In this document: piece after piece, positions 4,355 through 39,697 of the stretch
How positions within the stretch are numbered: the first letter of the stretch is position 1
Layout: the number at the start of each line of letters is the position of its first letter
From: Alistipes sp.
Lineage (GTDB): Bacteria > Bacteroidota > Bacteroidia > Bacteroidales > Rikenellaceae
NCBI GenBank assembly: GCA_017547175.1
Contig: JAFYQI010000002.1
Location: forward strand, 145,722-209,721
Direction: 5' to 3'
Length of the DNA: 64,000 nt
The notes under the pieces: model-generated
The model's input: only the letters and a program-made list of their open reading frames with translations
Database searches by the model: none
What the model was told of the DNA's origin: nothing
Made by a program: the position numbers and the translations under genes

Positions 4355-4365
4355 AAGATTTGCAT

Positions 4366-5293: not shown

Positions 5294-5305
5294 GCCAATA
5301 AAGTC

Positions 5306-5340
5306 AACAACTCGTGAGGACCCTCGCGAGTTGTTTTATT
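5306..5340 (+). terminator. rho-independent terminator of the Fic operon
   Basis: AACAACTCGTGAGG-A-CCCTCGCGAGTTGTT stem followed by TTTTATT. Confidence 0.6.
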
Positions 5341-23964: not shown

Positions 23965-24037
23965 GCCTCTTTAGCTCAGTTGGTAGAGCACGACACTCTT
24001 AATGTTGGGGTCCAGGGTTCGAGCCCCTGAGGGGGTA
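23965..24037 (+). tRNA. tRNA-Lys (anticodon CTT) with a non-canonical 3' acceptor strand
   Basis: Hand-folded cloverleaf: D arm GCTC/GAGC, anticodon loop CTCTTAA, T arm CAGGG-TTCGAGC-CCCTG. Acceptor GCCTCTT pairs with AGGGGGT through three G.U pairs. Confidence 0.8.
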
Positions 24038-25577
24038 CTTGAAGAGACTTTTCTGAAAAATCTGAAGAGTCTCTTTTCTTTTGCCCTCGTAACTCATTGG
24101 TTTGCAGGTATATTAAATCAAGCACCTTGTTGTAAGAGTTGGTTCGATATGATTTTCCATCAAAATCAAATTTTTCGGGGAACATCACACCAATAAGCTC
24201 TCGTTTGGCATCCAAACGACCCTCCTTAATCACGTGTGAAAGATTGTTAATCAATGACATAGCATACTTGATTTGTGGTTCGAAATCAGCACACTGAGGG
24301 TTTTTCAACATATCAAGTTTGGTTAAACACGCCTGTTTTTCTGCTAACACCCTCTGTTTCACTTCATTATATGTATCTGCATCAATTTTATCATCCAAAA
24401 ACTTATTGGTCGCAGCAGTCAATCTTGCCTCGTGTTGTAAAATTTCTTCCTCCACTTTTGCTATCTGGCTTCGGGAAACTATCCTGCTTTCTCCCTGAAT
24501 ATCTCTTATTACTTCCCTGTATAGGCTAATTATGGCATAGTTTGGAATAAGGGCTGAAAGATAACGAGCGAAATCATCATTTGCCTTATCAGCCCTGCAT
24601 CGTAGGTGCTTTGCATCCTTGCTGCAATGGTAGTAATAGTATTTACCTCCATTGCCTGTGCTTGCGCTACCTGTCATTGTTGCCCCACATTGCGGACAAC
24701 GCAGATACTGACGCAGGAAAACATCAGGATGTGTTCGTTTGGTTAATTTGGGTCTATACTTTTTATCAACTATTGATTGTACCTTTTCGAATGTGTCCCT
24801 ATCAATCAGTGGCTCGTGCAACCCCTTTACATAATGAGCAGGGATAACTCCAATTTTCTGGTCTTTGTATTCTGGCACATATATCTCTCCTACATAAAAT
24901 CTGTTACGGAGCATTTTTAGGAAAGAATTCTTGTGTATGTAGTGCCCTCGGCGAGCAAATAGTTTCTGTATGTAACATGGAGTATAAACACCTTTTGCCA
25001 CCTCGGCAAACATCTCTCTGATGATAGGGGCTTTCTCCTTATCTATCTCAACATACTTATGCTCATCATCTATTTGTCGGTTAATATAACCTCTTGGGGC
25101 TTTGTATGTACATTTACCCTTCTCTAATGATGCGTGGATACCCTCTTTGGTTCTACGGGAAATTTTTGTATCCTCTGATTGTGCCATTGAAATATATAGG
25201 GAGAGCATAGTGATGTAGTCAGATGCATTGAAATCAATGTTTTGTTCCACGCTATTCACCTCAATACCTAACTTCTCAAAATAATCCAGATTGATTAAAG
25301 CCTCTTTAAGATTACGTGAATATCTATCCCAGCGATAGACCAATACATAATCAATCTCGTGCTTATGTGCCTTGCAGAATTTCATCAAAGCTTGAAACTC
25401 AGTTCTCTTCTTAAAACCTGACTTTGCAGATTTATCCTCTTTATATACTGCTACTACGTTGTAGTGCTTCATCTCACAATAACGGCGGAGATAGTCCTCC
25501 TGCCAATTGAGAGAACTGCCTTTTTCCTGCTCCTCTGTTGAAACACGGCAATACAGAATTACATTTTTAATTTCCAT
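23976..25577 (-). CDS. large serine recombinase (integrase)
   Basis: Resolvase catalytic domain VILYCRVSTEEQ...YRWDRYSRN, recombinase domain, zinc ribbon CPQCG...YYYYHC, coiled-coil. The last ~20 codons are antisense to tRNA-Lys. Start is ATG 25577, or 25607. Confidence 0.85.
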   Translation of the reverse strand: MEIKNVILYCRVSTEEQEKGSSLNWQEDYLRRYCEMKHYNVVAVYKEDKSAKSGFKKRTEFQALMKFCKAHKHEIDYVLVYRWDRYSRNLKEALINLDYFEKLGIEVNSVEQNIDFNASDYITMLSLYISMAQSEDTKISRRTKEGIHASLEKGKCTYKAPRGYINRQIDDEHKYVEIDKEKAPIIREMFAEVAKGVYTPCYIQKLFARRGHYIHKNSFLKMLRNRFYVGEIYVPEYKDQKIGVIPAHYVKGLHEPLIDRDTFEKVQSIVDKKYRPKLTKRTHPDVFLRQYLRCPQCGATMTGSASTGNGGKYYYYHCSKDAKHLRCRADKANDDFARYLSALIPNYAIISLYREVIRDIQGESRIVSRSQIAKVEEEILQHEARLTAATNKFLDDKIDADTYNEVKQRVLAEKQACLTKLDMLKNPQCADFEPQIKYAMSLINNLSHVIKEGRLDAKRELIGVMFPEKFDFDGKSYRTNSYNKVLDLIYLQTNELRGQKKRDSSDFSEKSLQVPPQGLEPWTPTLRVSCSTN

Positions 25578-25734
25578 AACTATCTCCAATTGTTTTATTA
25601 TCTTCATTATTAAGTGCCTTCAATGCGATGTTTGCAACGGCATATAAATATTCTCTTACTTCTTTTACTTGGCTATCATCGAGCCTTAATCCATTGTCTT
25701 TTAGAATGTTTTTGCATACTTCGATACTAAGCAT
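25567..25734 (-). CDS. candidate 55-aa protein translationally coupled to the recombinase (possible accessory/directionality factor)
   Basis: MLSIEVCKNILKDNGLRLDDSQVKEVREYLYAVANIALKALNNEDNKTIGDSYGN. Its TAA (25567-25569) overlaps the recombinase ATG (TATGGAAATTAA). Confidence 0.35.
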   Translation of the reverse strand: MLSIEVCKNILKDNGLRLDDSQVKEVREYLYAVANIALKALNNEDNKTIGDSYGN

Positions 25735-26101
25735 ACATATTAAAAATTATTCTCTTATTTGCTTTTCGCCTCTTTTACCTTGAAATGATAAGGAAAAGAC
25801 TTCTGGTCGGCAGGGGTGTGCGTGGAACCCTTGTGCTATGTGCACAATTATCCTGTGGTTACATATTATTAAAATTTAAATTGATTTAGGGGAAAGACAT
25901 CAGTTCGTGTTAAGAACTGAAGTAAAGCAAATATACAAATCTTTTATGAGAATTCCAAATTCTATAAAAAATGTACTTCAATATCTGCAAAACTCCGAAT
26001 TGAATTATATTAGCATGAATGCTTATTTATCTAATCGTTATTAGCAAACGGGCTTATTGGAGAATTATATCCATTCCATATAAGTTTAGATTGCGTTTTA
26101 T

Positions 26102-26140
26102 GAGTACCCCTCTATGTAGAAGGTGGTGGGTAGAGGGGTG
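26102..26140. promoter_or_regulatory. att/res-like inverted repeat (GAGTACCCCTCTA - 16 nt - TAGAGGGGTG)
   Basis: ACCCCTCTA (26106-26114) and TAGAGGGGT (26131-26139) are exact reverse complements. The half-site resembles GAGGGGGTACT at the tRNA junction. Confidence 0.35.
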
Positions 26141-26258
26141 TTTTAATAGGTGTCCCCGCAATTTGAATTTTTATGAAGGGGTACGCAAATAGCATATACC
26201 CCATATCTGTTGTGTAAAAATTTTTTTGTCCCAAATTTTCGGTTTCAAAAATCGACCA

Positions 26259-26885
26259 CTATATTCCAAACTCCTTCTTAACTCGCTGTACGGTCGATAC
26301 CGATACACCACATATTGCAGCCGTATCACGGATACTTTTGCCCGCCTTCAATGAGCGAATGACCTTGCCGTACTCCTCTTGCTTGCGCTCTCTGCTCTTT
26401 ATCGAGCCGAGCTTGCGACCCATCTTTATACCTTTTACCTTTGCCAACTCTCGACCCGAATTCAATCGGTAACGAATGCTATCACGCTCTATCTCGGCAA
26501 AGCTACTCAATACAGCAGTAATCATCTTGGCAATGGGATTGGGTTGTCCATCGGCATTGAGGGTACAGAGCGGCAAATTTTGGATATAGACATTCACACC
26601 CGCCTTCGTCAGCTCGTCAATGGTATTTACAACAATCTTTGTCGAGCGTCCCAAACGACTGATTTCAGAAACGCATAGTGTGCCAATGCGGTTCTCGATG
26701 CAAAACTCTATGCACTCAGTGAGGACGGGGCGGTTCTCCTTCGCTCCGCTCATCTTCTCCTCGTATGTTGCTACCAGCTCCATTTCGTTGATGGCGATAT
26801 GTCGCTTCAAATCCTCTACCTGACGCTCGGTATTTTGTCTGTCACTCTCACTGCTCACACGAGCATAAATCACTGCCGTTGCCAT
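26259..26885 (-). CDS. small serine recombinase (resolvase/invertase family)
   Basis: AVIYARVSSESDRQNTERQ catalytic N-terminus and C-terminal HTH (IRDTAAICGVSVSTVQRV). Confidence 0.9.
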   Translation of the reverse strand: MATAVIYARVSSESDRQNTERQVEDLKRHIAINEMELVATYEEKMSGAKENRPVLTECIEFCIENRIGTLCVSEISRLGRSTKIVVNTIDELTKAGVNVYIQNLPLCTLNADGQPNPIAKMITAVLSSFAEIERDSIRYRLNSGRELAKVKGIKMGRKLGSIKSRERKQEEYGKVIRSLKAGKSIRDTAAICGVSVSTVQRVKKEFGI

Positions 26886-26936
26886 ATTTGTCGTATCAAT
26901 TTAGTGTATTCGTTTGGTATCCCTTTTTGATATGTG

Positions 26937-27242
26937 TTAAGCGGGATTGCTATACTCTGCCTGTACTCGTTCCTTGTATTGGTCACATCGCTCGACCATA
27001 CCATCTATAACCGCTACGAGATTGTCGCAATAGACCATTTCTTCAACTCTATTGTCTGCCAATCGTACCTCGAATAAGTCGAGCGCATCGTTGTAGATAA
27101 CCTCAACCCTGCCCTTGTAGAGAAAGCCATCGACTTCAAACGCCAACCCACTATCATCAGGCAGTGCTGTGGGGTGATGAAAACCCCACGAAAACACCAC
27201 CATCAACTGACTGCGAAGTATCGCTATAATGTACTCTGCCAT
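26937..27242 (-). CDS. hypothetical protein (101 aa)
   Basis: Same-strand run with a 4-nt gap to the next ORF. No motif recognised. Confidence 0.55.
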   Translation of the reverse strand: MAEYIIAILRSQLMVVFSWGFHHPTALPDDSGLAFEVDGFLYKGRVEVIYNDALDLFEVRLADNRVEEMVYCDNLVAVIDGMVERCDQYKERVQAEYSNPA

Positions 27243-27246
27243 AGAT

Positions 27247-27579
27247 TTAGAATACTTGGATTAGATTCTCGTAGCGCAATGAGCGGTAACCACCCTTTTC
27301 TACATCCCAATACTTGATGGTGTTCACTTGGTCACCGCTCAAGCCCCTGCCGTTCTGTGTAGCTTTCATCAGCTGACCATTGCAAGAGCCCCAAGCCTCA
27401 CGAATTTCGCCCGTGCTCTGCTTCTTGTAGAGGAAGTGTGCCACGCCATTCTTCAACTTCTCCTTAAGCAAGTCAATCATCTGCGCCTTAACCACGCCCA
27501 TCGCCGCACTACCTGTACGAGCAAAAATAACATTAGCACGATGTGCTGTCATTGAGTTTACTACAACCATTGTCTCCAT
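27247..27579 (-). CDS. small SH3-barrel-like protein, DUF2693-like
   Basis: FLYKKQSTGEIREAWG...IKYWDVEKGGYRSLRYENLIQV resembles DUF2693 proteins of Bacteroidales mobile elements (from memory). Confidence 0.5.
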   Translation of the reverse strand: METMVVVNSMTAHRANVIFARTGSAAMGVVKAQMIDLLKEKLKNGVAHFLYKKQSTGEIREAWGSCNGQLMKATQNGRGLSGDQVNTIKYWDVEKGGYRSLRYENLIQVF

Positions 27580-27611
27580 ATCTGTATGATTTTTTATTAC
27601 ATCTAAACTTT

Positions 27612-27806
27612 TTAATAACTTCTTCTAATCTGCTTTGGTTCACCCCAACCATTCAGGCGATATACCTCACGTACAGCCTCCTCGTACGAATATACATCCT
27701 TAACAAACGATGCCATCGTTCCTGTCTCAGATACCATCGTGTACAGCCAAATCCCCCACAGATTATAGTGGCGACCAAACTTGTATTTTCCAACTTCTAC
27801 CTTCAT
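27612..27806 (-). CDS. hypothetical protein (64 aa)
   Basis: First gene of the minus-strand run, directly downstream of the divergent AT-rich promoter region. Confidence 0.45.
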   Translation of the reverse strand: MKVEVGKYKFGRHYNLWGIWLYTMVSETGTMASFVKDVYSYEEAVREVYRLNGWGEPKQIRRSY

Positions 27807-27819
27807 AGTTTATCATCCT

Positions 27820-27843
27820 TTTGTATTACAAATATAATACAAA
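27820..27843. promoter_or_regulatory. operator-like palindrome TTTGTATTA-N6-TAATACAAA
   Basis: Perfect 9-bp arms in the divergent intergenic region next to an HTH gene. Confidence 0.4.
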
Positions 27844-27958
27844 TAAATTATATAAACAAATATTCAACTCGATTTTATAATAAAATCATATAATTTTTAT
27901 GATATTTTTATGGCTATATAATAATTGTTTTGTATTTTTACTGAAAATATGGACTAAT

Positions 27959-28276
27959 ATGAACGGATTAGAGCTTGAAAAGACCTATTTTGAGGAGCAC
28001 GCTATGGAGATGCTTACTGCGGCCAATATGACAAAGGCTCAGTTTGCAAGGGCTATGGATATACTACCCCAAAATATCAATAAACTTATTTCAACCAAGA
28101 ATGTGCTAATGCTCATTAAGGTATCTACGGTATTGGATATTCCCATCCAAGTATTGATATATGGAGAGCAGGAGGATGAGCCTCAGACTGATTTGCACGG
28201 TTGCATCTATATAAACAATGTACCTCACATTTTCAATAATAGAGAAGAGTTGGATGAACTACTAAAACAGGAGTAA
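27959..28276 (+). CDS. XRE-type helix-turn-helix protein
   Basis: MTKAQFARAMDILPQNINKLIS is an HTH_3-like core. ATG 27959 preferred over the track start. Confidence 0.6.
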   Translation: MNGLELEKTYFEEHAMEMLTAANMTKAQFARAMDILPQNINKLISTKNVLMLIKVSTVLDIPIQVLIYGEQEDEPQTDLHGCIYINNVPHIFNNREELDELLKQE

Positions 28277-28337
28277 GTTCATGAATTGCGCATTTTGAGT
28301 AAGAAGCATTTAGATTATCCAAACAACAATTGATACT

Positions 28338-31010
28338 ATGAAAAACATCCCCTATAACGAAATATGGTACACTACACGTAATCATGATGTTCTCAAGAGT
28401 TTTGATATGTATGTATTTGGCTCACAACTTTTATCTAATACATATGAGAAAGGAATGGGGGTATTACGATTTAACACAGATTTAACTATTATAGGGGAAT
28501 CTGCATTTTCTCTATGTAATGAATTAGTGACAGTGGAGCTACCCGACTCTATTACTAAAATTGATGTAGGAGCATTCTCCGCTTGTGAGAATTTGAAAGA
28601 ATTTAAAGTGCCAGATAGTGTCAAGGAGATAGGAGAATGCGCTTTTGGGCTATGTGTAAACTTGGAAAAATTCAGTGGTAAGTTTGCGTCAATAGATGGA
28701 TTGTGCCTTATTGTCAATGGTATTCTTAATCAGTTTGCCCTTGGATGTGGTTTGAAAGAATATACTATTCCAAACGATGTTAGAGAGATTGGATGGAGTG
28801 CGTTTTCAGATAGTGAGTTAACTAAAATTAATTTGCATGAAAATATAATTAAGATTTGTCATAGTGCATTTTGTGGTTGTCAAAATTTAACATATATCAA
28901 TATTCCTAATAGTATTACAACCATTGCGGATGTCGCTTTCCAAGATTGTATTAACCTCAAAAATATATTTATTCCTAAGACGGTTACCAATTTAGGAAGC
29001 GAGATATTTGAAGGTTGCAATAACATTTTGGTGAAATATGAGGATGAAAGTATTAAGATTTCAAAGGACAAGGGATTAAAACAACTTTTGGAAGAATACG
29101 TTGCTTTACAGAAAGATGTACCTAATGGTTGGATATATTCTGGTGATAAAACAGCAAAAATAATACATGTTCCCTATGGCGTTACATTGGTAAAATCAGA
29201 AGCATTTGAGGGTTGTGATAATGTTGAAGTTATACATTTACCACAAACCATTGAAGAAATAGAGGACGGAGCATTTACAGATTTGGACAACTTGTATCGC
29301 TTCGAGAGCGATTATGCCTCTCCTGATGGGAAATGTTTAATTATCAAAAATACCTTAGTTGGTTTTGCGGCAAAAGACATTGAGGAATATGAGCTCCCAA
29401 CAGGCTTTGCGAAGGTCGCTCCCATGGTTTTCTATAACAAAGAACAAATAAAAACAATCATCATCCCCGAAGGCGTTCTTTCTATAGGGGATGAAGCTTT
29501 TATGGGGTGCCTTAATCTATACCATATAAAGCTACCTTCGAGTCTTAATTTTATTGGTTACAAAACCTTTGCTGACTGCATCTCTCTAAGGAAGATAGTT
29601 GTACCTAATAGCGTTAAAGTAATTTGTGGTAATAATTTTCAAGGTTGCGAACATTTAGAAGAAGTAACATTATCTGACAACTTAATAGCCCCTAACGAAA
29701 GTCTCTTTGGCGGATGTAATAATCTAAAAAAACTTAAATGTAAATTTGGTTCAAAGGATGGCAGATGTTGTATTATCAATGGTGTATTAACAGACTATTT
29801 TGGTACACGCTCAATATCCGAATATGTTATTCCGAATGAGGTTGAAAGTATAGCAAAATTTGCATTCCGCCATGATGAGCACTTGCAAAAAATAATTATA
29901 CCCGCCTCTGTTACCCAAATTGATGATAATGCATTTTTCTCATGTAGTAAATTAAAATATGTAGAATTTGAAACAATAACCCCACCAATATTTGGTGAAA
30001 ACATATTTTCCCAAACTGCATTACTTGCGATTTATGTTCCTGACGAAGCTATTTCTGTATATGAAAAAGTATTTAAGAAAACTAAAGCCAACGCATGTGT
30101 TGTTGCAAAATCAAAAAGCAATAATTGGCTGAAAGAAGTTGCTTTTGGAGATGCATACAATAATGAAATATCAATGGAGGCTTTATGGAGTATTGGTGTT
30201 TGTTGCTACAAAGAAAGAAAAACAAAAGAGGCTTATGCTATTTTCGAGAAATTAATTGCTCGAGGGGAAAGCGATAGCTACCCTTACTCGATACTCATTG
30301 AGGCATATCGTAATCGTCAAGACATAGAAAACGAGAAAAGAATTCTTACTATGGCTTTAAAGAATCTGCCTAATAGAGGCAATTCTCACCACGAATACCA
30401 AAAACGCTTAAACACTTTATCTGCCAAAACTCAAGAATACAAATTACCCACAATTGCAGAGATTCCCCAAATTTCCATTAAGCATGGTGAATTATATGAA
30501 GAGGAACTATTTAAATTGCCTGAGTTTAATTTTTACACAGAGGGAAGTGGATTGCCTATCAGTTGGTATGAACGAGAAATCGTAATGCAACCAATCGGAG
30601 ATATAATAGACTACTTTAAAGAGCTTATCCATGAAGCAGAGTTAGCAACAAGCATTAAAGATTATCAAAAAGCAGCTTTCATATATGAGCAAATAATTGC
30701 TGAAAAATATTGGAAACCAGCCCCGTATGACAAATTGATATTAATATATTCCCGAGCAATGTTATTGGATGACGAAATTAGAGTTCTCAAATTAAGTATA
30801 GACCATTTTACTAAACTTAGAGCAAAACGACATCAGTATATTATGGCATTAGCGGAAAAATATAATGCTCTTGATTATATCGAAAAGAAAAAGAAAACAA
30901 CGGGGCGAATAAATTATTATTATGGATGGAAAGGAGATATTTGTCTATATGATTCATATCCTGCAATTGATAAATGGATAAAAAGACTCGAAAAGAAATT
31001 AAAGCAGTAA
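28338..31010 (+). CDS. cytoplasmic BspA-type LRR protein with C-terminal TPR-like helical domain
   Basis: No signal peptide or lipobox. About 590 aa of LRR_5 repeats (LPDSITKIDVGAFSACENL ...), then about 300 aa of helical repeats (EAYAIFEKLIARGE..., YQKAAFIYEQIIAEKY...). Confidence 0.8.
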   Translation: MKNIPYNEIWYTTRNHDVLKSFDMYVFGSQLLSNTYEKGMGVLRFNTDLTIIGESAFSLCNELVTVELPDSITKIDVGAFSACENLKEFKVPDSVKEIGECAFGLCVNLEKFSGKFASIDGLCLIVNGILNQFALGCGLKEYTIPNDVREIGWSAFSDSELTKINLHENIIKICHSAFCGCQNLTYINIPNSITTIADVAFQDCINLKNIFIPKTVTNLGSEIFEGCNNILVKYEDESIKISKDKGLKQLLEEYVALQKDVPNGWIYSGDKTAKIIHVPYGVTLVKSEAFEGCDNVEVIHLPQTIEEIEDGAFTDLDNLYRFESDYASPDGKCLIIKNTLVGFAAKDIEEYELPTGFAKVAPMVFYNKEQIKTIIIPEGVLSIGDEAFMGCLNLYHIKLPSSLNFIGYKTFADCISLRKIVVPNSVKVICGNNFQGCEHLEEVTLSDNLIAPNESLFGGCNNLKKLKCKFGSKDGRCCIINGVLTDYFGTRSISEYVIPNEVESIAKFAFRHDEHLQKIIIPASVTQIDDNAFFSCSKLKYVEFETITPPIFGENIFSQTALLAIYVPDEAISVYEKVFKKTKANACVVAKSKSNNWLKEVAFGDAYNNEISMEALWSIGVCCYKERKTKEAYAIFEKLIARGESDSYPYSILIEAYRNRQDIENEKRILTMALKNLPNRGNSHHEYQKRLNTLSAKTQEYKLPTIAEIPQISIKHGELYEEELFKLPEFNFYTEGSGLPISWYEREIVMQPIGDIIDYFKELIHEAELATSIKDYQKAAFIYEQIIAEKYWKPAPYDKLILIYSRAMLLDDEIRVLKLSIDHFTKLRAKRHQYIMALAEKYNALDYIEKKKKTTGRINYYYGWKGDICLYDSYPAIDKWIKRLEKKLKQ

Positions 31011-31032
31011 ATAACGCCTAAACATTAATATT

Positions 31033-32460
31033 ATGAAAGAACTAAGATGCCCAAAATGTGGCACATCATTTACTATAGATGAAGCAGACTATGCTTCTAT
31101 TCTAACTCAAGTCAGAAATGTAGAATTTGAAGAGGAGCTACAAAGAAGAACAGAAGAGGTTAATGCTCAACATGAAGTTGAGTTGGAGATAATTAAAGCC
31201 AAAAGCGATAAAGAATATGCCAATAAACTTGCGGAGAAAGCCCTCGAATCAAGTAAAAAGGACAATGAGATAGCAAAGCTCAATGAGCAAATCAACTCTT
31301 TAACTCTAACAAAGGATTTAGAGATTAAGAGTGAATTGGCAAAGAAAGATGCCGAGATTGCGAAATTGCATGAGCAGATTAATAACATTGCCCAAAGCAA
31401 GGAGTTAGAGTTTAGAAATGAGTTAGCACAAAAAGAAGAACAGATTTCTAAACTTAAAATAGACTTAACAGAAGCTGATGCCCATCTTAAGCTTGCGATT
31501 TTAGAAGAACAAAATCGTTCGAAGGAAGCAATAACTAATAAGGAAGCTGAAATTATTGAGTTGCGTAATATGGTTAAAACGGCTAAGAATGAAGCAATTA
31601 TTAGCGAAAATAACCTTAAGGATAAACACAAGGCAGAACTTCGAATAGCACAAGAACAGATAGAGTTTTATAGAGATTTAAAGAGTCGCATGTCTACCAA
31701 GATGGTCGGTGAAACATTAGAGGAGCACTGCCAAGTTGAATTTGAGCGTATGTTGCGTCCTCATTTGCCATTTGCGTATTTTGAGAAAGACAATGATGCG
31801 AGAGGAGGCAGTAAGGGGGATTTCATTTTTAGAGATTTTGATGACGGCGTAGAGTATGTATCTATAATGTTTGAAATGAAAAATGAATCTGATACAACTG
31901 CTACCAAACACAAAAATGAGGACTTTTTCAAGAAACTTGATGATGACAGGAAAGCTAAAAATTGCGAATATGCAGTTTTAGTATCGCTATTGGAAGCTAA
32001 TAGCGAGTTATATAATACAGGAATTGTTGATGTATCACATCGTTATGATAAGATGTATGTTGTACGCCCACAATTTTTCGTTCCTTTAATAACATTGCTT
32101 GTCAAAGCATCAAGAAAGAGTATTGAATACAAACGAGCGTTAGCAGTAGCCCAGAATCAGTCTGTTGATATAACAAATTTTGAAGAACGCCTGGCAGATT
32201 TTAAGGATAAGTTTGGTAGGAATTATCGTTTAGCAAGTGAGAAATTTCAGGTTGCAATCAAAGAGATTGACAACTCAATTGCTCATTTGCAAAAAATTAA
32301 GGATGCATTAATTGGTTCAGAGAATAATCTTCGTTTAGCAAATGACAAAGCAGAGGATTTGACAATTCGCAAATTAACTCATAAAAATCCGACAATGTCT
32401 CAAAAGTTCAAAGAAGAGAGAATGAGGAAAAGTGGAGATTATGAGATATTAGAAGATTGA
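31033..32460 (+). CDS. DUF2130 family protein (zinc ribbon, coiled-coil, PD-(D/E)xK-like C-terminus)
   Basis: [21 protein letters not shown]-terminus, long coiled-coil, GDFIFRDF...[10 protein letters not shown] nuclease-like motif. Confidence 0.75.
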
Positions 32461-32481
32461 TGAGTGATTTTTAAAATTAAC

Positions 32482-33213
32482 ATGTCACAAACTATGTATA
32501 ACGCTAATAAACTGTATGCGAACATTATTCCGCTATATCACATACATAGAGATAGTGCGTCATCTAATCACGCTATATTGAATTCGGAGAGGAGATGGGA
32601 GCAGTTTATTCCTACTAATTTCATATATGCATTTTTTACATTTAATACATTATATAATGTAGATTGGGAGCAGAGTTTAAAAATTGGACACAAGTGGATA
32701 ATTCTAAATAATAGAGGAGACCTATATGAGTTCGATAAAATCGAACAATATATTAACTTTTGTTGCAAGGAAGAAGAATTTCTTAAAATATATAAAGATT
32801 TTTTTAGAAAATATGTAACACATCGTTATCCATCATGTCAAGTTTTATCAGAACTACACAAAATACAGGTTGATAAACCTCTTTCTAATGGAAGGATACG
32901 GAAGAAGAGTATAGTTTCTTCTTTTCTCGATGCTTGTCATAATTTTCTAGAATACGACAATTTTGATAAACATTTTATAAAAGAAGTAGCAAGGTTCGTA
33001 TATTATATTCGATGTAATCTTTTTCATGGCGTAAAAACTATGGACATGCTTAACGACTCAGCTCAACAAATAAGATTAGAAATATATACATTGTTCATTA
33101 TAGCCATAAACCAAATGGTATTTTCTTACATTGAATACCTAAATGGGTGTGATATTAACAAAAGTTTCTCGGCACTAATTGATGTGCTGAAGTGGAAGAA
33201 TTGTGAGCTGTAA
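32482..33213 (+). CDS. hypothetical protein with HEPN-like Rx4H motif
   Basis: All-helical looking. FVYYIRCNLFHG carries R-x4-H. GTG 32464 is an alternative start, 4 nt after the upstream stop. Confidence 0.5.
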   Translation: MSQTMYNANKLYANIIPLYHIHRDSASSNHAILNSERRWEQFIPTNFIYAFFTFNTLYNVDWEQSLKIGHKWIILNNRGDLYEFDKIEQYINFCCKEEEFLKIYKDFFRKYVTHRYPSCQVLSELHKIQVDKPLSNGRIRKKSIVSSFLDACHNFLEYDNFDKHFIKEVARFVYYIRCNLFHGVKTMDMLNDSAQQIRLEIYTLFIIAINQMVFSYIEYLNGCDINKSFSALIDVLKWKNCEL

Positions 33214-33269
33214 AAGCATAAACTTGAAGAGAAAATAATTTGTAAAATTATCATCTTTTGGTGATAAAA

Positions 33270-34448
33270 ATGAAAGATAAAACAGCGTATAAAGCATTGG
33301 AAAGTATTGCCGAGGATATATCTCTATCAAGGCTTGCAAAGAGCATTGGTAAAGATAAGAGCTGGCTATATCACAAACTGAAGAATGATATTGTCAATGG
33401 AGTTGAATATCGTTTCAATGTTTCTGAGTATGCTTTATTGGCAGAGCGACTTCACAAACTTGCAGAGGATATACATAGATGTGCAGAAGAGTTGGATAGC
33501 GTAGTACAAGATGCCAACCGAACAGCAGGAAGGTATTATACAAATGAGAATGTATTTGAATATCCATTATTCAAAGAGTGGCTCAAACTTATACCTGAAT
33601 TGGAGAGAACAACCATATTAGAACCTTTTGCAGGAGAATGTTCCATACCAAAAATGCTTGAACAATATGGTTTTAAGTGGAAATGTTACGATATTGAAGG
33701 AGGAGATAATGTTGTTAAGAGAGATACAATAAGCAATTTCCCGAAAAATCATAGAGTTTGTATCACCAACCCTCCATATCTTGCGAAAAACTCTGCCACA
33801 AGACGAGGGTTGCAATACCCTGATTGTGAGTTTGACAACATTTATAAGTATTGTTTGAAGCTGATGTTGGATAATTGTCAGTATGTTGCTGCTATTATAC
33901 CTGATAGTTTTATTCAATCAGGATTGTTTACCGATAGATTATATGGGGTTATATCTCTTCCTGAAAAGGTTTTTGAGGATACAGAGTACCCCGTTTGCCT
34001 TGCGATGTTTTCTCCAAAGAAGAGTGCCGATTTTGCGATATGGCGTGGAGATACCTTTTTAGGTAGTTATAGAGAGCTATCTAAAACTGCACTTTTGGAG
34101 TATCGAGATGAGCGATGGGTGTTTAACGATGAGAATGGTAGTATTGGAGTAATATGCGCTGACGGCAACAAGAGTCGTATCCGATTTGTCAAGGGTGAGG
34201 AGATAGACAGCGAGATTAAGGAGAGTAGTAGATTTTTGGTGCGAGTATCAGGATTGCCTGATGATATAGACCGAGATACATTCATCGAGCGTTGCAACAC
34301 CATCTTGGAGCAATACCGAGAAATCACAAAGGATATTTTCCTCAACTCATTCAAAGGATTGAGAAGTGACGGAATGTATAGAAAGAGAATCCCGTTTAAG
34401 GTGATACGTTTGATATTGACTTATGCGTTGGAGCGGATGATAGTCTGA
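33270..34448 (+). CDS. N6-adenine DNA methyltransferase (motif I then motif IV order)
   Basis: ILEPFAGECS (motif I-like) and CITNPPYL (NPPY motif IV). N-terminal ~100 aa are HTH-like. Confidence 0.75.
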   Translation: MKDKTAYKALESIAEDISLSRLAKSIGKDKSWLYHKLKNDIVNGVEYRFNVSEYALLAERLHKLAEDIHRCAEELDSVVQDANRTAGRYYTNENVFEYPLFKEWLKLIPELERTTILEPFAGECSIPKMLEQYGFKWKCYDIEGGDNVVKRDTISNFPKNHRVCITNPPYLAKNSATRRGLQYPDCEFDNIYKYCLKLMLDNCQYVAAIIPDSFIQSGLFTDRLYGVISLPEKVFEDTEYPVCLAMFSPKKSADFAIWRGDTFLGSYRELSKTALLEYRDERWVFNDENGSIGVICADGNKSRIRFVKGEEIDSEIKESSRFLVRVSGLPDDIDRDTFIERCNTILEQYREITKDIFLNSFKGLRSDGMYRKRIPFKVIRLILTYALERMIV

Positions 34449-34538
34449 TAATTCTTTGAATAATACGAATACTAAAAACGGCAGACTCTCAAAAGGGTCT
34501 GCCGATTTTTCTGAATACACCGACAACTTGAATACACC

Positions 34539-35507
34539 CTAAATTAAAATTCCGAGTAAAATAGTTATCTCTATTAGAAGGTTTCTCAGGATTGTCTTAA
34601 TTGATTTAGGGTTATTATCAATCTTCTCTGCCAGTATGCGAAAAGGTTTCATTACCTTACTGATGTGAGTCTTGGGGGATAGGTGCTGGCGCAACAATGC
34701 CTCAACTTTAACTAAATCCCCACCGCAATGCTCCAGCAACAAAAGGTTTTTCAATTCAGAAAGGCTATGTCCAGTAGTAGCATCCCCAACCTCAACCAGT
34801 GCCTTATCCAACATAGACCAAATTGGATTAGCATCAGAGTCGAGCACTGAGTTAAGAGATGTATCAGGGATGTTTAATGCTCGTCTTAGTTGCTCCTTAG
34901 CGTTGAGGTTTAATTCAAATCGTACCTTATCCTTAAAGTAATCTTGCAACTTTTCCCTATCCGCTACGGTGTCCATAAATTTTCGGTTACTGGCACGTTG
35001 CAACTCAGCCTCCTTGTCATAAATGGTTAGACGCTGCTTGTAGGATTTGGTAACGACATTCTTTTCAATGATTAGGTTGTCATTGATATTACGAGTAAGA
35101 TATTTCTTGAAATTACATACACTTGCTCGTATAGCAGAAGATAATTCATTGCAGTTGGGATAATGAATATCTAATGCAACATCAGCCTTGACCACTTCGG
35201 CATCAGTCAAAATTTTATCAATATCTAAATTACAAAATCCTAATTGATTGATATGGTCTAAACATATATGAATGTTATTCTGATTAATTAGTTGAGGGTA
35301 ATCATCTCCGAGAATTTTACCAGTAAATTCTATTACTAATTCTCTTTCTATACAATCAATTTCTACATATAAAAGATATGGATTAGTAATAGTAATTTTA
35401 TATTCAGAAATACATCCATCTCTTAATATACATTTGAACTTAGAATAATCGAGTATCTCTACATAATCAATTTGAGATACAATTTTTAATTTATCAAATT
35501 TTATCAC
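34539..35507 (-). CDS. hypothetical protein, possible replication initiator (Rep_trans-like)
   Basis: QRLTIYDKEAEL resembles the conserved YDK block of replication initiation factors. Function is uncertain. Confidence 0.4.
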   Translation of the reverse strand: MIKFDKLKIVSQIDYVEILDYSKFKCILRDGCISEYKITITNPYLLYVEIDCIERELVIEFTGKILGDDYPQLINQNNIHICLDHINQLGFCNLDIDKILTDAEVVKADVALDIHYPNCNELSSAIRASVCNFKKYLTRNINDNLIIEKNVVTKSYKQRLTIYDKEAELQRASNRKFMDTVADREKLQDYFKDKVRFELNLNAKEQLRRALNIPDTSLNSVLDSDANPIWSMLDKALVEVGDATTGHSLSELKNLLLLEHCGGDLVKVEALLRQHLSPKTHISKVMKPFRILAEKIDNNPKSIKTILRNLLIEITILLGILI

Positions 35508-36106: not shown

Positions 36107-36142
36107 TAGAAAATAGACCCTTTGGAATTGCAACGAAAAGCT

Positions 36143-37051
36143 ATGGATCAGCCGAAAATTGAGCGTGTGCTGCGTCTGATGAAGATGATGACGGGCAACA
36201 ACAACTACACCGTGGAGGATATGGCCGAGCGACTCGGTATCTCCTATCGGTCGGTGTATCGTTACATCGAGACCTTTAAGGAGGCCGGATTCGTTGTGCA
36301 ACGCAAAGAGGGCGGCATCTATAAACTCGGTAAGGAGAGCCGCTACTTCAAGGATATCTCGCAGCTCATCCACTTTACCGATGAGGAGGCTCACATGGTC
36401 AACCAACTCATCGAGGGTCTGGACAATACCAATATGCTCAAGCAGAACCTCCGCAAAAAACTCACGGCTATCTATAACTGCACTTCGCTTGCCGATAGTG
36501 TGGTCGAAGGCAAGAACGCAATTAATGTCAATCGCGTAATAGAGGCCATCAACGACCAAAAACAGGTCATTCTTCGCAGCTATGCATCATCACATACGGG
36601 CGTAGTTCGCGACCGCCTGGTTGAGCCGTTTGGTTTTACGACCAACTATGTGCAGATCTGGTGTTATGAGCCGGAATCGGGACTCAACAAACTCTTTAAT
36701 GCGGCCCGTGTAGGAGCAGTAGAGGTGCTGAACGATGATTGGAAGTTTGCCGACAAACATCACGAAGGCTACATCGACATCTTCCGCATTACGGGCTTTG
36801 AGCAGAAATGCGTGCAGCTGGAGTTGGGCGTAATGGCGCACAACCTCTTGATCGAAGAGTATCCGTTGGCAACTCGCGACCTCACACCGATCGACGACTC
36901 ACATTGGCTACTCGACACGATGGTCTGCAACTATGTCGGCATTGGTCGTTTCGTAATGGGACTCTCGGAGGATATCAAGATACTCACTCCCGAGTTCAAT
37001 GAATATATAGAGACTACAATTAATCGCTTACATAGCAATTATCATCGTTAG
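36143..37051 (+). CDS. WYL-domain transcriptional regulator (HTH + WYL)
   Basis: IERVLRLMKMMTGNNNYTVEDMAERLGISYRSVYRYIETFKEAGF is an HTH_11-type N-terminus. The central region (RDRLVEPFGFTTNYVQIWCY) is WYL-like. Confidence 0.8.
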   Translation: MDQPKIERVLRLMKMMTGNNNYTVEDMAERLGISYRSVYRYIETFKEAGFVVQRKEGGIYKLGKESRYFKDISQLIHFTDEEAHMVNQLIEGLDNTNMLKQNLRKKLTAIYNCTSLADSVVEGKNAINVNRVIEAINDQKQVILRSYASSHTGVVRDRLVEPFGFTTNYVQIWCYEPESGLNKLFNAARVGAVEVLNDDWKFADKHHEGYIDIFRITGFEQKCVQLELGVMAHNLLIEEYPLATRDLTPIDDSHWLLDTMVCNYVGIGRFVMGLSEDIKILTPEFNEYIETTINRLHSNYHR

Positions 37052-37094
37052 AATTGTCATTGACAGAAATTGACAATTTAGGCTCATACCTTTG
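37052..37094 (+). repeat. operator/promoter-like repeat, copy 1
   Basis: AATTGTCA-TTGACAGAAAT-TGACAATT inverted repeat. The unit CATTGACAGAAATTGACAATT...TACCTTTG (37058-37094) starts 6 nt after the WYL stop. Confidence 0.6.
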
Positions 37095-37095
37095 T

Positions 37096-37125
37096 CCCTG
37101 CGATCAGATGGTTGCAGGGATTTTT
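37096..37125 (+). terminator. terminator of the WYL gene
   Basis: CCCTGC-GATCAGATGGTT-GCAGGG followed by ATTTTTG. Confidence 0.6.
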
Positions 37126-37157
37126 GTTTACATAGTCTAATTTAACAAAAATATATC

Positions 37158-37194
37158 CATTGACAGAAATTGACAATTCGCACCAGTACCTTTG
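37158..37194 (+). promoter_or_regulatory. operator/promoter-like repeat, copy 2, with -7 box TACCTTTG
   Basis: CATTGACAGAAATTGACAATT is identical to copy 1 and offset by exactly 100 bp. TACCTTTG at 37187-37194 matches TAnnTTTG. Confidence 0.6.
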
Positions 37195-37198
37195 CAGT

Positions 37199-37573
37199 AT
37201 GAAAACAACTAAAAACAATACAATTATGGAACACAACACTATTGACAAGCATTTGGGCAATTTCAACATTGCGGGTTTTACATTTTGGGATGGATATGAG
37301 GCATTTGGAGATCTTAAAGTCGGCACTTCCTTGCATCTGGTACGAGAGGCGGATAACAAGTTCGATCCTTATGCGGTGGCTATTTACTATAAGGATACCA
37401 AGCTTGGTTTCATTCCTCGTGGCGAGAATCAGCTGGTAGCGCAGTTTATGGATCTTGGCTACAATATGATCTTTGATCTCCGCGTGCAGCGTATCTGTCC
37501 AGACGCACACCCAGAAAAGCAAGTGGGGGTAATGCTCCGTCTTAAGGAGGCAAATAAGGTGTTTAATAAATAA
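37199..37573 (+). CDS. HIRAN domain protein
   Basis: FNIAGFTFWDGYEAFGDLKVGTSLHLVREADNKFDPYAVAIYYKDTKLGFIPRGEN matches the HIRAN pattern. ATG 37199 lies 4 nt after the -7 box (leaderless?); alternative ATG at 37226. Confidence 0.7.
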   Translation: MKTTKNNTIMEHNTIDKHLGNFNIAGFTFWDGYEAFGDLKVGTSLHLVREADNKFDPYAVAIYYKDTKLGFIPRGENQLVAQFMDLGYNMIFDLRVQRICPDAHPEKQVGVMLRLKEANKVFNK

Positions 37574-37592
37574 TATGTAGGAGGCATAGATT

Positions 37593-38270
37593 ATGGAGAC
37601 AAAGAAAACGCAGGTTTACAACCTTATTATTTTGGACAAGAGCGGATCAATGGAGAGTATCCGTAAGGCTGCCATTGATGGCTACAACGAGACTCTTGGC
37701 TCAATTAAGGCAGCTCAGCTCAAGCATCTCGACACACAGGAACACTTCATTTCGCTAGCTGCATTTTGTGGTTGCGGTGTAGATATGATCTACGATTGCA
37801 CTCCTATTAAGGATGCGGAAAAACTCACAAAGGCGAAGTATGATCCATGCTGCTGCACTCCTCTCTATGATGCGATCGGCAGATGTATTAAGGCATTGGC
37901 AAAGAAGACCGACAAAATTGAGGATGCCGCTGTGCTAGTTACTATCATTACAGATGGTGAGGAGAATGCCTCAGTAGAGTGGACTGGCCCAGCCATTAAG
38001 AGACTTATCGACGAGCGCAAGGAAGAGGGATGGATGTTCTCCTATATCGGTGCGGACCACGATGTAGAGAGCGTTGCAGCAAGCATCTCTATTACCAACA
38101 CTGTTGTATGGACCAAAACGACCGAAGGAACAGAGGCTGTGATCTGTAATGAGAATGAGGCTCGTGAGCGATTCTACGATAAGATGGATGCATGCTGCGC
38201 ACCTTGTGCAAGCGTACATGAGAGAAAGCGAATGCGCAAACAATTTTCGGAAGAGTATTATAAAAAGTAA
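37593..38270 (+). CDS. von Willebrand factor type A (vWA) domain protein
   Basis: MIDAS elements ILDKSGSM, CCTPLYDAIG, ITDGEENAS. No signal peptide. Confidence 0.8.
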   Translation: METKKTQVYNLIILDKSGSMESIRKAAIDGYNETLGSIKAAQLKHLDTQEHFISLAAFCGCGVDMIYDCTPIKDAEKLTKAKYDPCCCTPLYDAIGRCIKALAKKTDKIEDAAVLVTIITDGEENASVEWTGPAIKRLIDERKEEGWMFSYIGADHDVESVAASISITNTVVWTKTTEGTEAVICNENEARERFYDKMDACCAPCASVHERKRMRKQFSEEYYKK

Positions 38271-38275
38271 AAGTT

Positions 38276-39259
38276 ATGAATTTAGATATCACATTATCAA
38301 TTACCAAGAAGCAGGAGGCGCAGCACAACACCTTTCTGCTTAGGTGGAATCCCGCAATATCGTCATACACCATGGATCATCTTGATGATGATATGTCAGA
38401 GTGGGCGGATAGCCGTTGGTGGGATGACGACTTTGATTGGAGCGTCTATGAGTGGCAGAAGGCTCGAAAGGGCGATCGTTTCTTTATGGTGCGTGTAGGA
38501 GAGGGCAATACGGGTATTTTTGCTGCGGGCCGCTTTACATCCGAGCCATATAAAAGCGAGGATTGGTCTGGCAAAGGTCGCGAGGTCTATTATATGAAGA
38601 TGGAGTTTGAGGCGGTATTCCACCCGGAGCGTTCGGAGATTATCTCTACTGAGGATCTGGAGCGAGAGTTACCACATCTCGATTGGCGCAAAGGACATTC
38701 TGGCCAGCTGCTTGAAAAGGAGGATGCAGTTCGCCTGGAGCTGATGTGGCGCGATTTCGTGGGCCGCAATAAGACAATGTTCCTACCTCGCGCTCTGAAG
38801 AATGAGGACTACGACTCTCGTTCAGACATAGACAAGGCTATCGAGTTTGCCTCAAAGGCGCACGCTGCAGACTACGACCTCGATGGCAACCCAACCATCC
38901 TGCACCCGCTGGCGGTAGGTATGATGGGCCAAAACGACACCGAACGTATCGTAGGCTTTCTACACGACGTGGTCGAAGACACGAAATACGACTTTGATGA
39001 CTTGATCGACATCGGATTCTCGTCAGAAGTTATAGCCGCTTTGCGCCTCTTGACCCATGACAAGCGAACTCCATATATGGAGTATGTGGCACAGATCTGC
39101 AAATCAAACAACCGAACCGCCATTCATGTAAAAATGAATGATCTGCGCCACAACCTGGCTCGTGGCAAGGCTGGTGGACATATGCGTTGTGTCGAGAAGC
39201 ATACCATAGCCCTACAGTATATGGAGGATTATCTCCTACAACATAGCCTCACAGATTAG
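38276..39259 (+). CDS. fusion of a PUA-like (EVE/ASCH-type) domain and a RelA/SpoT-type HD (p)ppGpp-hydrolase domain
   Basis: C-terminus ILHPLAVGMM...VGFLHDVVEDT...MNDLRHNL is the HD_4 signature. N-terminus FLLRWNP...GDRFFMVRVG...GIFAAGRFTSEPY looks like a PUA-type barrel (this part is inferred). Confidence 0.7.
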   Translation: MNLDITLSITKKQEAQHNTFLLRWNPAISSYTMDHLDDDMSEWADSRWWDDDFDWSVYEWQKARKGDRFFMVRVGEGNTGIFAAGRFTSEPYKSEDWSGKGREVYYMKMEFEAVFHPERSEIISTEDLERELPHLDWRKGHSGQLLEKEDAVRLELMWRDFVGRNKTMFLPRALKNEDYDSRSDIDKAIEFASKAHAADYDLDGNPTILHPLAVGMMGQNDTERIVGFLHDVVEDTKYDFDDLIDIGFSSEVIAALRLLTHDKRTPYMEYVAQICKSNNRTAIHVKMNDLRHNLARGKAGGHMRCVEKHTIALQYMEDYLLQHSLTD

Positions 39260-39263: not shown

Positions 39264-39503
39264 ATGTCAAGCTATCGCCGCTTTCGTACTTTTCTGCAAG
39301 AGCAACATTGCGAAGAGGCCTTTGACCGAGCCTTCTATCACCACAACGGTTTCATCTCGCTAGATGAGTCGTTGTGGCAAGCCGGTGAAGCGGCTTATAT
39401 CCTCGCACAGGCCTTCGACTGGCGAAAAACTCCCGAAGGCCGAGCATTTTGGGTGGAGATTGATAGAAAATGGCACGCTTGGCGAAAAAGCAGCATCTTA
39501 TAG
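39264..39503 (+). CDS. hypothetical protein (79 aa)
   Basis: Starts 4 nt after the upstream stop with the same codon bias. No motif recognised. Confidence 0.5.
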   Translation: MSSYRRFRTFLQEQHCEEAFDRAFYHHNGFISLDESLWQAGEAAYILAQAFDWRKTPEGRAFWVEIDRKWHAWRKSSIL

Positions 39504-39607: not shown

Positions 39608-39611
39608 CCAG

Positions 39612-39697
39612 TACTCGGAACGGGAATCGAACCCGTACGGCCATTACTGGCCACAGGATTTTAAGTCCGGCGTGTCTACCTATTCCACCATCCGAGC
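39612..39697 (-). tRNA. tRNA-Leu (anticodon TAA), long variable arm
   Basis: Hand fold: acceptor GCTCGGA/TCCGAGT (G1.U72), anticodon loop CTTAAAA, variable arm GTGGCCAGTAATGGCCGT, T arm ACGGG-TTCGATT-CCCGT. Confidence 0.85.

Follow-up and report, generated by a model that had tools for sequence, protein, structure and literature searches.

A stretch of 64,000 nucleotides (nt) from Alistipes sp. (assembly GCA_017547175.1, contig JAFYQI010000002.1, positions 145,722 to 209,721 of the forward strand; hereafter the window) carries a gene that joins a PUA-like domain to a RelA/SpoT-type HD hydrolase domain. The gene is an ATG-started open reading frame (ORF) of 327 amino acids (aa) at 38276..39259 on the plus strand. 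Its product has three parts: an N-terminal PUA-like domain (hereafter the N-domain), a linker of ~12 residues, and a C-terminal HD domain resembling the (p)ppApp hydrolase Aph1. The HD half is a new subfamily-level variant of the Aph and small alarmone hydrolase enzymes, and the N-domain a new family within a known fold superfamily. We propose, tentatively and at somewhat less than even confidence, that the fusion is a damage-reversal or "enzymatic immunity" protein whose N-domain captures an adenosine-containing ligand.

The fusion gene is real and conserved, not a chance ORF. An earlier interpretation, made from the letters of the window alone (the sequence-only reading), had given exactly the frame that we recovered from the ORF listing, and the motifs that it quoted lie at residues 20-26 (FLLRWNP), 66-75 (GDRFFMVRVG), 80-92 (GIFAAGRFTSEPY), and 105-111 (YYMKMEF). 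A search of 5.8 billion clustered proteins returned 743 matches at E <= 0.001; the best 120 of the 743 show 73-100% identity with 97% or more of the length covered, and the few named ones among these 120 are called "hypothetical protein [Alistipes sp.]". We fetched 25 full-length orthologous loci (72-83% identity) from metagenome-assembled genomes (MAGs) of Alistipes and Rikenellaceae, whose hosts are the guts of yak, goat, sheep, cattle, buffalo, and deer. An uninterrupted frame of 319-327 aa with the same start is found in all 25. Among the 26 orthologs compared, the median pairwise ratio of nonsynonymous to synonymous substitution (dN/dS) was 0.089 in the N-terminal half (residues 17-170) and 0.070 in the C-terminal half (residues 183-320), although dS is close to saturation; hence, both halves are under purifying selection. 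Our analyses show a cytoplasmic protein of two domains.

The C-terminal domain (residues 183-320; 38822..39235, plus strand) is of the RelA/SpoT type, as the sequence-only reading had it. It matches the NCBIfam model TIGR00691 (spoT_relA; E 8.1e-9, residues 188-254) and the PHROGs family phrog_990, "metal-dependent phosphohydrolase" (E 2.5e-30, residues 180-295). The best relative of solved structure is Aph1 (PDB 7smg; E 6.9e-13, residues 184-295), followed by the hydrolase domains of Rel and RelA (7oiw, 8acu, 6yxa, and 1vj7; E 3e-8 to 1.5e-7) and a MESH1-type structure (3nr1; E 2.4e-4). The Pfam model HD_4 stays below its gathering score in the fusion protein (15.8 bits against a cut-off of 27.2), and the synthetase model PF04607 finds no match in it, which makes the protein a hydrolase only. 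The HD motifs H210-P211, H229-D230, E233-D234, D289, and N293 align with those of Aph1 and Rel and are kept in the aligned orthologs. We take the motifs H..HP, HD, ED, and D...N (the K..D.L.N helix) to be the metal-binding and catalytic set of RelA/SpoT-homolog (RSH) hydrolases. The motifs thus show what we predict to be an intact RSH-type 3'-pyrophosphohydrolase domain, in a sister subfamily of Aph1.

To describe this relationship at the level of residues, we aligned 27 HD domains with MAFFT: the window protein, 5 orthologs, a more distant homolog from the same bacterial family (G173), 11 other N-domain+HD fusions, and 9 stand-alone relatives. Positions of Aph1 were mapped through one of the fusions (P0124) and the stand-alone Aph-like rows, which keep the Aph1 numbering. 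The alignment shows two subfamilies, and a maximum-likelihood tree separates them by a long branch with 100/100 support. In the account of Ahmad et al. (2023; PMC10083569), the signature that defines an Aph enzyme is made up of six positions: D24, R96, D116, R119, K133, and Y134. The subfamily to which the window protein does not belong keeps this signature in full and includes stand-alone proteins of the same bacterial family as well as fusions such as P0124. The window protein keeps two of the six (D24 = D201 and K133 = K308). A hand alignment had placed the counterparts of K133 and Y134 at Q314 and Y315; we dropped this assignment in favor of K308 and H309, which the MAFFT alignment with stand-alone relatives gives. 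(p)ppGpp hydrolases have an arginine at the D24 position, according to the text of the same paper, and the presence of D201 there may point toward adenosine substrates.

The N-domain (residues 17-170; 38324..38785, plus strand) is invisible to the family models that we searched. Residues 1-170 have no match to any Pfam, NCBIfam, PADLOC, or PHROG model at E <= 1, and the window protein has no Pfam EVE, YTH, or ASCH match at the same threshold. Among its relatives, one protein has a sub-threshold EVE match (P0213, E 0.16); individual Pfam scans found SseB_N in a second (P0259) and, in a third (P0265), an extra ASCH domain that lies elsewhere in the protein. A profile search of PDB sequences with the N-domain gave only two matches at E ~0.4, to a viral decapping protein, which we take as chance.

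The predicted structure is more informative. An AlphaFold2 model of the N-domain, built with an alignment of 28 stand-alone members (A2), has a predicted local distance difference test score (pLDDT) of 90.4 and a predicted template-modeling score (pTM) of 0.85, with the order beta-alpha-beta5-alpha-alpha. A Foldseek search against the PDB gave 12 matches at E <= 0.001, with EVE or YTH proteins at the top. The search returned the EVE proteins 2p5d, 2ar1, 1wmm, 2eve, and THYN1, YTH domains, and VcaM4I, at E 3e-4 to ~1e-2 and with TM-scores of 0.36 to 0.53. A VIA-align search against 48,161 chains, independent of Foldseek, returned PUA-like readers as all of its top 17 chains (Z 6.8-11.3), followed by a part of DrmAB (Z 6.2) and then a drop to 4.5. 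The best were 2ar1 (Z 11.3, root-mean-square deviation 3.6, 134 residues), THYN1 with 5mC DNA (10.2), 2gbs (10.1), and 1wmm (9.9); the YTH domain of Mmi1 (9.4), VcaM4I (9.3), the ASCH structure 5guq (9.0), more YTH domains (7.9-9.2), and the N-domains of McrB (7.1 and 6.8) came next. A second member of the family, of different architecture (P0129), was modeled with a pLDDT of 92.6 and gave the same list of neighbors, with Z 12.6 to 2ar1. An hhalign comparison of A2 with 18 Bacteroidota EVE domains (alignment A3) gave a weak match (probability 58%, E 9.8e-5, 63 columns), pairing the GD-FFMV-G...G-F-S-PY core of the N-domain with the GD-V-FYHS...VG-EV-YPD core of EVE. As modeled, the N-domain family forms a branch of its own, so far unannotated, within the PUA-like superfamily. 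The sequence-only reading had suspected an EVE/ASCH-type barrel here and proposed predicting the structure of residues 1-170; the prediction upholds the suspicion.

Conservation within the family points to a pocket rather than a surface. In at least 85% of 147 sequences, W24, N25, P26, S29, W55, S56, G66, D67, G75, G80, G85, S89, P91, Y92, D96, W97, G99, Y106, L128, P133, W137, G140, H141, S142, and G143 are kept. The EVE pocket motif W-G-x-R-N-Y is absent, and the family has motifs of its own instead (WNP, WS, DWSG, and GHSG). The conservation suggests a predicted pocket lined by four tryptophans, one tyrosine, and the polar residues N25, S29, S56, D67, S89, D96, H141, and S142. Four invariant tryptophans, a tyrosine, and polar side chains would suit a base, a nucleotide, or another small ligand, and suggest a pocket of this kind rather than a long nucleic-acid surface. 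The ligand of the N-domain could be a nucleotide or a 3' end, or a protein, or the N-domain itself could be a catalyst. YqfB, a PUA-like ASCH protein, is an amidohydrolase. A bifunctional protein, one half removing a base or ribose adduct and the other a 3'-pyrophosphate, would make use of the near-invariant polar residues D67, D96, H141, S142, S56, and N25 as a catalytic set, and ASCH structures are among the neighbors of the fold. The N-domain matches no catalytic family, however, and the match to E. coli YqfB (titled "ac4C amidohydrolase") is weak, at Z 3.1; we regard an enzymatic N-domain as improbable.

To see in what company this domain occurs, we searched 1.84 billion cluster representatives with phmmer and found 1,301 relatives at E <= 0.001, 82 of them at E <= 1e-30. 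The N-domain sits at the N or C terminus of proteins of 144 to 1,505 aa. We took architecture counts from the 150 best representatives, 118 of which are multi-domain. The sequence-only reading had suggested a survey for HD combined with a PUA-like N-domain, and the combination is indeed recurrent: an Aph-like HD occurs in 14 of the 150, always C-terminal to the N-domain, and phrog_990 matches 12 of the 118. A Pfam scan of the 118 found LRR_5 in four, DUF4299 in two, and HD_4 at E <= 0.001 in five. One protein (P0189) combines an N-domain (1-148) with a complete NADAR domain (168-325, E 1.2e-52). Two others (P0165, 1,477 aa, and P0258, 1,505 aa) have a UvrD helicase and a PD-(D/E)XK nuclease, with the N-domain at the extreme C terminus. 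The majority of the partner regions have no Pfam match. This holds for the two partner clusters that are largest, with 53 and 13 of the 129 segments; these dark regions were checked by spot Pfam scans. In P0129-type proteins, the ~290-aa N-terminal partner has no Pfam match at E <= 0.5, and a word-based homolog search found nothing shorter and only three close relatives of similar length. The whole of the P0129 model is confident, its Foldseek matches come almost only through the N-domain, and VIA-align with residues 4-147 gave middling, non-specific matches only (ZipA, Z 7.1; RnlA NRD, Z 6.2). The N-domain is thus a promiscuous module. Its link to HD is recurrent and not one-off, since fused forms occur in both deep HD clades and, given the well-supported branches of the HD tree, the fused state must have changed at least twice.

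A rival explanation is a poly-immunity fusion, in which the N-domain is a protein-binding or decoy immunity domain against another injected toxin, joined to an Aph-like immunity domain as a co-traveling gene, with the two halves uncoupled. In favor of it, the N-domain has a strongly acidic composition, can sit at either end of a protein, and makes up the whole protein in ~28 of the 150 representatives (140-214 aa); its partners are mostly fast-evolving and lack Pfam matches; and the fusion gene is sporadic and mobile. DUF4299, present in 2 of the 118, is placed by a passage of PMC8285248 in a type VI secretion effector/immunity variable region of Campylobacter jejuni, and Aph1 is itself an immunity protein (PMC10083569, in its main text). 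However, the ~25 positions conserved across the 147 divergent sequences, including the four tryptophans, one tyrosine, and the GHSG and DW loops, point to a pocket that is fixed, for catalysis or a small ligand, and away from a toxin-binding surface that evolves fast. The order of the two domains never varies, with HD on the C-terminal side; fused forms have arisen in two HD clades; and the fusions with UvrD and PD-(D/E)XK are unlike immunity proteins. We consider two uncoupled immunity domains unlikely.

Under the damage-reversal proposal, the N-domain would capture an adenosine-containing ligand. This could be a nucleotide of the (p)ppApp type in free form, or the adenosine at the 3' terminus of a nucleic acid pyrophosphorylated by an RSH-type toxin. 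By capturing it, the N-domain would recruit or gate the HD site, and HD would then hydrolyze the 3'-pyrophosphate and restore a normal nucleotide or 3'-OH end. The same N-domain may serve other reversal enzymes, such as NADAR, in an equivalent way. We arrive at the reversal of adenosine-diphosphate-containing nucleotide-type adducts because the identifiable catalytic partners and neighbors of the family are an Aph-like HD, NADAR, and, at one orthologous locus (L037), an ADP-ribosylglycohydrolase. In the literature, Aph1 is described as an immunity enzyme that counters a toxin with (p)ppApp synthetase activity (PMC10083569), NADARs as enzymes that undo the ADP-ribosylation of bases (PMC11543638, PMC11125620), and small alarmone hydrolases as able to strip 3'-pyrophosphate from the CCA ends of tRNA (bioRxiv 10.1101/2021.04.30.441581). 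We infer damage reversal from the intact HD motifs, D201, the PUA-like fold, the recurrent fusion, the parallel with the NADAR protein P0189, purifying selection, and the accessory distribution of the gene.

This distribution separates the fusion from a housekeeping enzyme. The genome that contains the window (2.0 Mb, 12 contigs) has one N-domain copy. Among 201 genomes of the family, only three have a full-length match to the fusion: this one, G177 (81% identity), and G173 (43% identity). About 12 of the 201 encode stand-alone HD proteins (143-223 aa, 42-46% identity), and the bulk of the remaining matches fall in long RSH proteins, in their hydrolase domains. Of 251 genomes sampled evenly from the order, 5 contain the N-domain. 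Two of these five copies are interrupted by stops (one and three TAA; G496:C37:16370-16630 and G423:C854:424-876), which suggests that they are decaying. If the protein were an ordinary small alarmone hydrolase, with a housekeeping role and a structural extension at the N terminus, its intact HD would be accounted for, and the genome does use (p)ppGpp, having two long RSH genes. Against it, besides the rarity of the fusion, the chromosomal position varies, mobile-element genes adjoin the locus, and the N-domain is distributed widely and independently. We reject a housekeeping role on distribution and hold it to be very improbable.

Phages and plasmids do not appear to be the source of the fusion either. 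Among 50,697 phage records searched with tblastn, 372 match, all through HD only and none covering at least 80% of the query; the N-domain alone has no match in the phage records. In the plasmid collection, 366 records match, none over at least 80% of the query, and the 25 listed match the C-terminal part only. A scan of IMG/VR with six peptide patterns only found no relative. On these searches, we rejected a phage or plasmid origin.

In the window, the fusion gene is the fourth of five co-oriented genes, which encode a helix-turn-helix (HTH) WYL regulator, a HIRAN protein, a vWA-like protein, the fusion, and a 79-aa protein; the gaps among the last four are 19, 5, and 4 nt. The HTH + WYL transcription regulator (309 aa; 36122..37051, plus strand) was identified with Pfam and PADLOC (WYL, 3e-15). 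It is followed by a terminator-like hairpin of 12 pairs and a T run (37094..37121, plus strand), found by consensus scan only, which would separate the WYL gene from the downstream block of four. The HIRAN protein (37160..37573, plus strand; HIRAN E 1.4e-11) is listed as an ORF of 137 aa from a TTG at 37160, and its true start is probably ~20 codons later since the orthologs have 111-118 aa. The vWA-like protein (225 aa; 37593..38270, plus strand; phrog_7371, 2.3e-34) has a DxSxS motif, and its gene ends 5 nt ahead of the start codon of the fusion. The 79-aa protein, to which no function is assigned, begins 4 nt past the fusion stop (39264..39503, plus strand); it was called in the ORF listing and recurs in G173 and at orthologous loci. 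On the right, the cassette is bordered by miaA and a tRNA-Leu(taa) gene (39611..39697, minus strand; tRNA call), the latter marking the right edge of the accessory region. A scan for sigma-70 promoters gave 9 sites against 8.6 expected and so no enrichment, with a consensus that is not appropriate for Bacteroidota.

There are faint signs that the block is expressed. Contigs from RNA libraries (four metatranscriptome-labeled runs of two animal-gut studies) cover a ~95%-identical relative of the window at 37139-38415; they span the HIRAN and vWA genes, cross the vWA/fusion junction, and include the first 140 nt of the fusion gene. A further short piece lies at 36142-36221, and the rest of the fusion gene is uncovered at 93% likeness or more, which proves nothing. 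We treat this coverage as a weak sign of expression, as contigs cannot prove a single transcript and carry-over of DNA is possible. One of the contigs runs past 38340 into sequence too divergent to place on the window.

To the left of the cassette lies an AT-rich mobile element (23976-35507, GC ~0.33-0.42) that adjoins a tRNA-Lys gene. It encodes a large serine recombinase (542 aa), a resolvase/invertase (207 aa), a WYL_2 protein, an 890-aa BspA-type leucine-rich-repeat protein, DUF2130 and DUF5053 proteins, and a Phage_CRI-like Rep. Homologs of this Rep (L047) and of the DUF2130 protein (L046) also adjoin the fusion cassette in other MAGs.

The company of the fusion gene varies between loci. 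Over the 25 orthologous loci, we counted a WYL gene at 8, HIRAN directly upstream at 11, vWA at 2, and the small protein downstream at 8. One locus (L052) has an M28 peptidase upstream of HIRAN. Two others have insertions between the WYL and HIRAN genes: the ADP-ribosylglycohydrolase mentioned above (L037, 430-1254; 3.7e-31), and a 684-aa ORF together with a 350-aa McrBC protein (L055, ~2650-5780; Pfam 3.5e-42). The order in G173 is WYL (73% identity), fusion, small protein (44%). The N-domain also keeps such company outside the orthologous loci. An unrelated Bacteroidales MAG (L059, 2591-11152) has, in order, a 627-aa P-loop protein, a vWA protein 72% identical to that of the window, a P0129-type protein (457 aa) that joins a dark partner to the N-domain, and a WYL regulator; a protein of 580 aa containing a DGQQR-type motif, a small protein with repeats, and HIRAN follow. 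Going by their motifs, the 627-aa protein may be KAP-like and the 580-aa protein DUF262/ParB-like. Another N-domain locus (L099) has HIRAN directly upstream. From these loci and the orthologous ones, we conclude that the recurring set is WYL, HIRAN, vWA, and an N-domain protein, with HD one of several attached modules. The fusion gene itself is a sporadic, horizontally moving accessory gene, often in a WYL-regulated cassette with HIRAN, vWA, and the small protein.

A cassette of this kind invites a reading as defense. The fusion could be a sensor-effector or gated antitoxin, whose PUA-like half would recognize modified bases, or foreign DNA or RNA, during phage infection and switch HD on or off, so that the alarmone level, and with it growth arrest or abortive infection, would track the infection; HIRAN, vWA, and WYL would then be parts of one anti-phage system. 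Readers of modified bases are the closest structural neighbors, among them readers from type IV restriction enzymes (VcaM4I and the McrB N-domains). The upstream gene encodes a WYL regulator, and HIRAN has a match to the PADLOC candidate defense model PDC-M03B (5e-14). McrBC lies within the L055 cassette, and in L059 the vWA, N-domain, WYL, and HIRAN genes stand beside P-loop and ParB-like proteins. Operons that pair a YafY (HTH-WYL) regulator with an EVE protein have been described (PMC7641849). On the other side, an alarmone hydrolase detoxifies rather than kills, and the cassette has neither a toxic effector nor a toxSAS. The PDC-M03B match covers only the HIRAN part of that model, and no defense model matches the fusion. 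Nor does the N-domain, which is acidic, have the EVE pocket motif. At 11 of the 25 loci we found no cassette partner, and at four of these 11 that have upstream sequence (L039, L042, L043, and L053) the upstream genes checked with Pfam are of housekeeping type (TonB-dependent receptor, RmuC, tRNA methyltransferase, ResB/CcsA, and an Omp28-domain protein). We judge a defense sensor to have a low probability.

Several observations weigh against damage reversal as well. First, four of the six Aph1 residues differ: R96 is replaced by Q273, D116 by A295, and Y134 by H309, and R119 has no counterpart, so that the sequence does not fix the substrate. The Q273 position is an arginine in several orthologs, and all 14 rows of the HD clade of the window protein have a histidine at the H309 position. 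Second, the N-domain is strongly acidic, with a net charge of -10 in the window copy, and does not have the look of a general nucleic-acid binder. The family as a whole has a median isoelectric point (pI) of 4.86, with 92% of 146 members below pI 6; the median net charge of the EVE comparison set is -2.5. Third, we found no toxin partner. The only PF04607 matches in the genome are the two long RSH genes (786 and 768 aa), which lie on other contigs and not near the locus, though divergent synthetases of the Tas1/Apk type might escape the model. Fourth, none of the four cassette partners was found beside the fusion at the 11 loci mentioned above, 4 of which have less than 600 nt upstream. Fifth, in the G173 ortholog (L024, G173:C10, 8021-8974, minus strand) HD is 60% identical and the N-domain only 24%, without DWSGKGR and GHSG and with WNP changed to WKP and WS to WQ. 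HD can thus persist without the N-domain pocket. Finally, McrBC in L055 and the P-loop and ParB-like neighbors in L059 fit an anti-phage island equally well. The sequence-only reading fares unevenly by the same evidence. Its two folds and their unannotated pairing stand; the recognition of nucleic acid and the second-messenger substrate that it attached to them remain conjecture, given the acidic N-domain without an EVE motif and the two of six Aph1 residues.

Damage reversal remains our preferred proposal. The closest known counterpart of the fusion is Aph1 (adenosine 3'-pyrophosphohydrolase 1 of Bacteroides caccae, 7SMG). Aph1 likewise has a single RelA/SpoT-type HD and no synthetase, and the fusion keeps the H, HD, ED, and D..N motifs as well as the counterparts of D24 and K133. 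Like the Aph family, the fusion occurs in Bacteroidales, and like most Aph homologs it is an orphan without an adjacent toxin. It differs in the C-terminal signature of HD, which reads NDL(R/K)HNLxRG...GGH...KH in place of the Aph1-type DLEDN(M/I)D..R...KY; in its position in a deep sister clade; and in the 170-aa PUA-like N-domain, which Aph1 does not have. A second counterpart is provided by ATfaRel and MESH1, members of the same HD superfamily, which remove 3'-pyrophosphate from tRNA CCA ends (as reported by Kurata et al., bioRxiv 10.1101/2021.04.30.441581). They set a precedent for a pyrophosphorylated RNA 3' end as a substrate, and with such a substrate a nucleic-acid-type binding domain would have a purpose. 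Those enzymes are single-domain, and ATfaRel lies beside its toxSAS, whereas the fusion has no toxSAS nearby: its neighbors are the WYL, HIRAN, vWA, and 79-aa proteins, with no small alarmone synthetase by PF04607. Activity of the fusion on tRNA is thus conjecture.

The N-domain, for its part, shares its fold and the order of strands and helices with EVE, YTH, and ASCH readers (2AR1, THYN1 5J3E, Mmi1, YTHDC, VcaM4I, and the McrB N-domains; Z 8-11 over 113-134 residues) and, like EVE, is fused to many different partners. These partners are hydrolases such as HD and NADAR, in contrast to the HNH or McrB-type restriction modules of the readers. The fusion protein has no nuclease domain, and McrBC occurs at 1 of the 25 loci (L055), unlike a type IV restriction system. 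The YafY-EVE operons of Bell, Wolf, and Koonin (2020; PMC7641849) likewise have a WYL-type regulator beside a PUA-like protein and variable defense or stress neighborhoods; there, however, EVE is paired with SRPBCC or VOC small-molecule binders, and the N-domain is not a member of Pfam EVE. NADAR antitoxins are linked to the window protein through the shared N-domain only: P0189 has the same layout with NADAR in the place of HD, but the NADAR adduct is glycosidic and not a 3'-pyrophosphate.

We searched the full-text literature for an EVE or PUA-like domain paired with an alarmone hydrolase, and for an alarmone hydrolase with HIRAN, and found no relevant description. In the EVE census (PMC7641849), a search for terms gave no HD domain, ppGpp, SpoT, or phosphohydrolase. 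The main text of PMC10083569 uses "fused" six times, only for MuF/PAAR toxins, and does not use "fusion"; its supplementary lists of 2,769 Aph homologs may contain members. That the pairing lies outside described families and is not a housekeeping architecture, as the sequence-only reading had supposed, agrees with the lack of any model for residues 1-170, the presence of the fusion in 3 of 201 genomes, and its absence from the literature searched.

A wider and more speculative scheme, to which we give little credence, extends damage reversal to the whole N-domain family. The family would be an undescribed mobile "adduct-reversal" set, whose PUA-like module recognizes a toxin-modified adenosine (a 3'-pyrophosphorylated CCA or DNA 3' end, or an ADP-ribosylated base) and hands it over to interchangeable hydrolases (Aph-type HD or NADAR). 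In the window, the module would work with a HIRAN 3'-end binder and vWA under a WYL damage sensor, and the fusion would be a 3'-end repair enzyme, not a second-messenger hydrolase.

(p)ppApp and 3'-pyrophosphorylated tRNA are recently recognized products of bacterial toxins and anti-phage effectors. To our knowledge, only single-domain hydrolases reverse them. The recurrent fusion of such an HD hydrolase to a reader-type domain suggests that the enzyme can rely on a separate module for capturing its substrate or for regulation. The fusion also brings out a large unannotated PUA-like family, of ~1,300 clusters at 50% identity, and among its other partners, NADAR, UvrD-nuclease proteins, and numerous dark domains suggest a part in the conflict or repair biology of gut anaerobes. 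Identifying the ligand of the N-domain would give a function to hundreds of hypothetical proteins and might uncover sensors of nucleotide or nucleic-acid adducts that form a new class.

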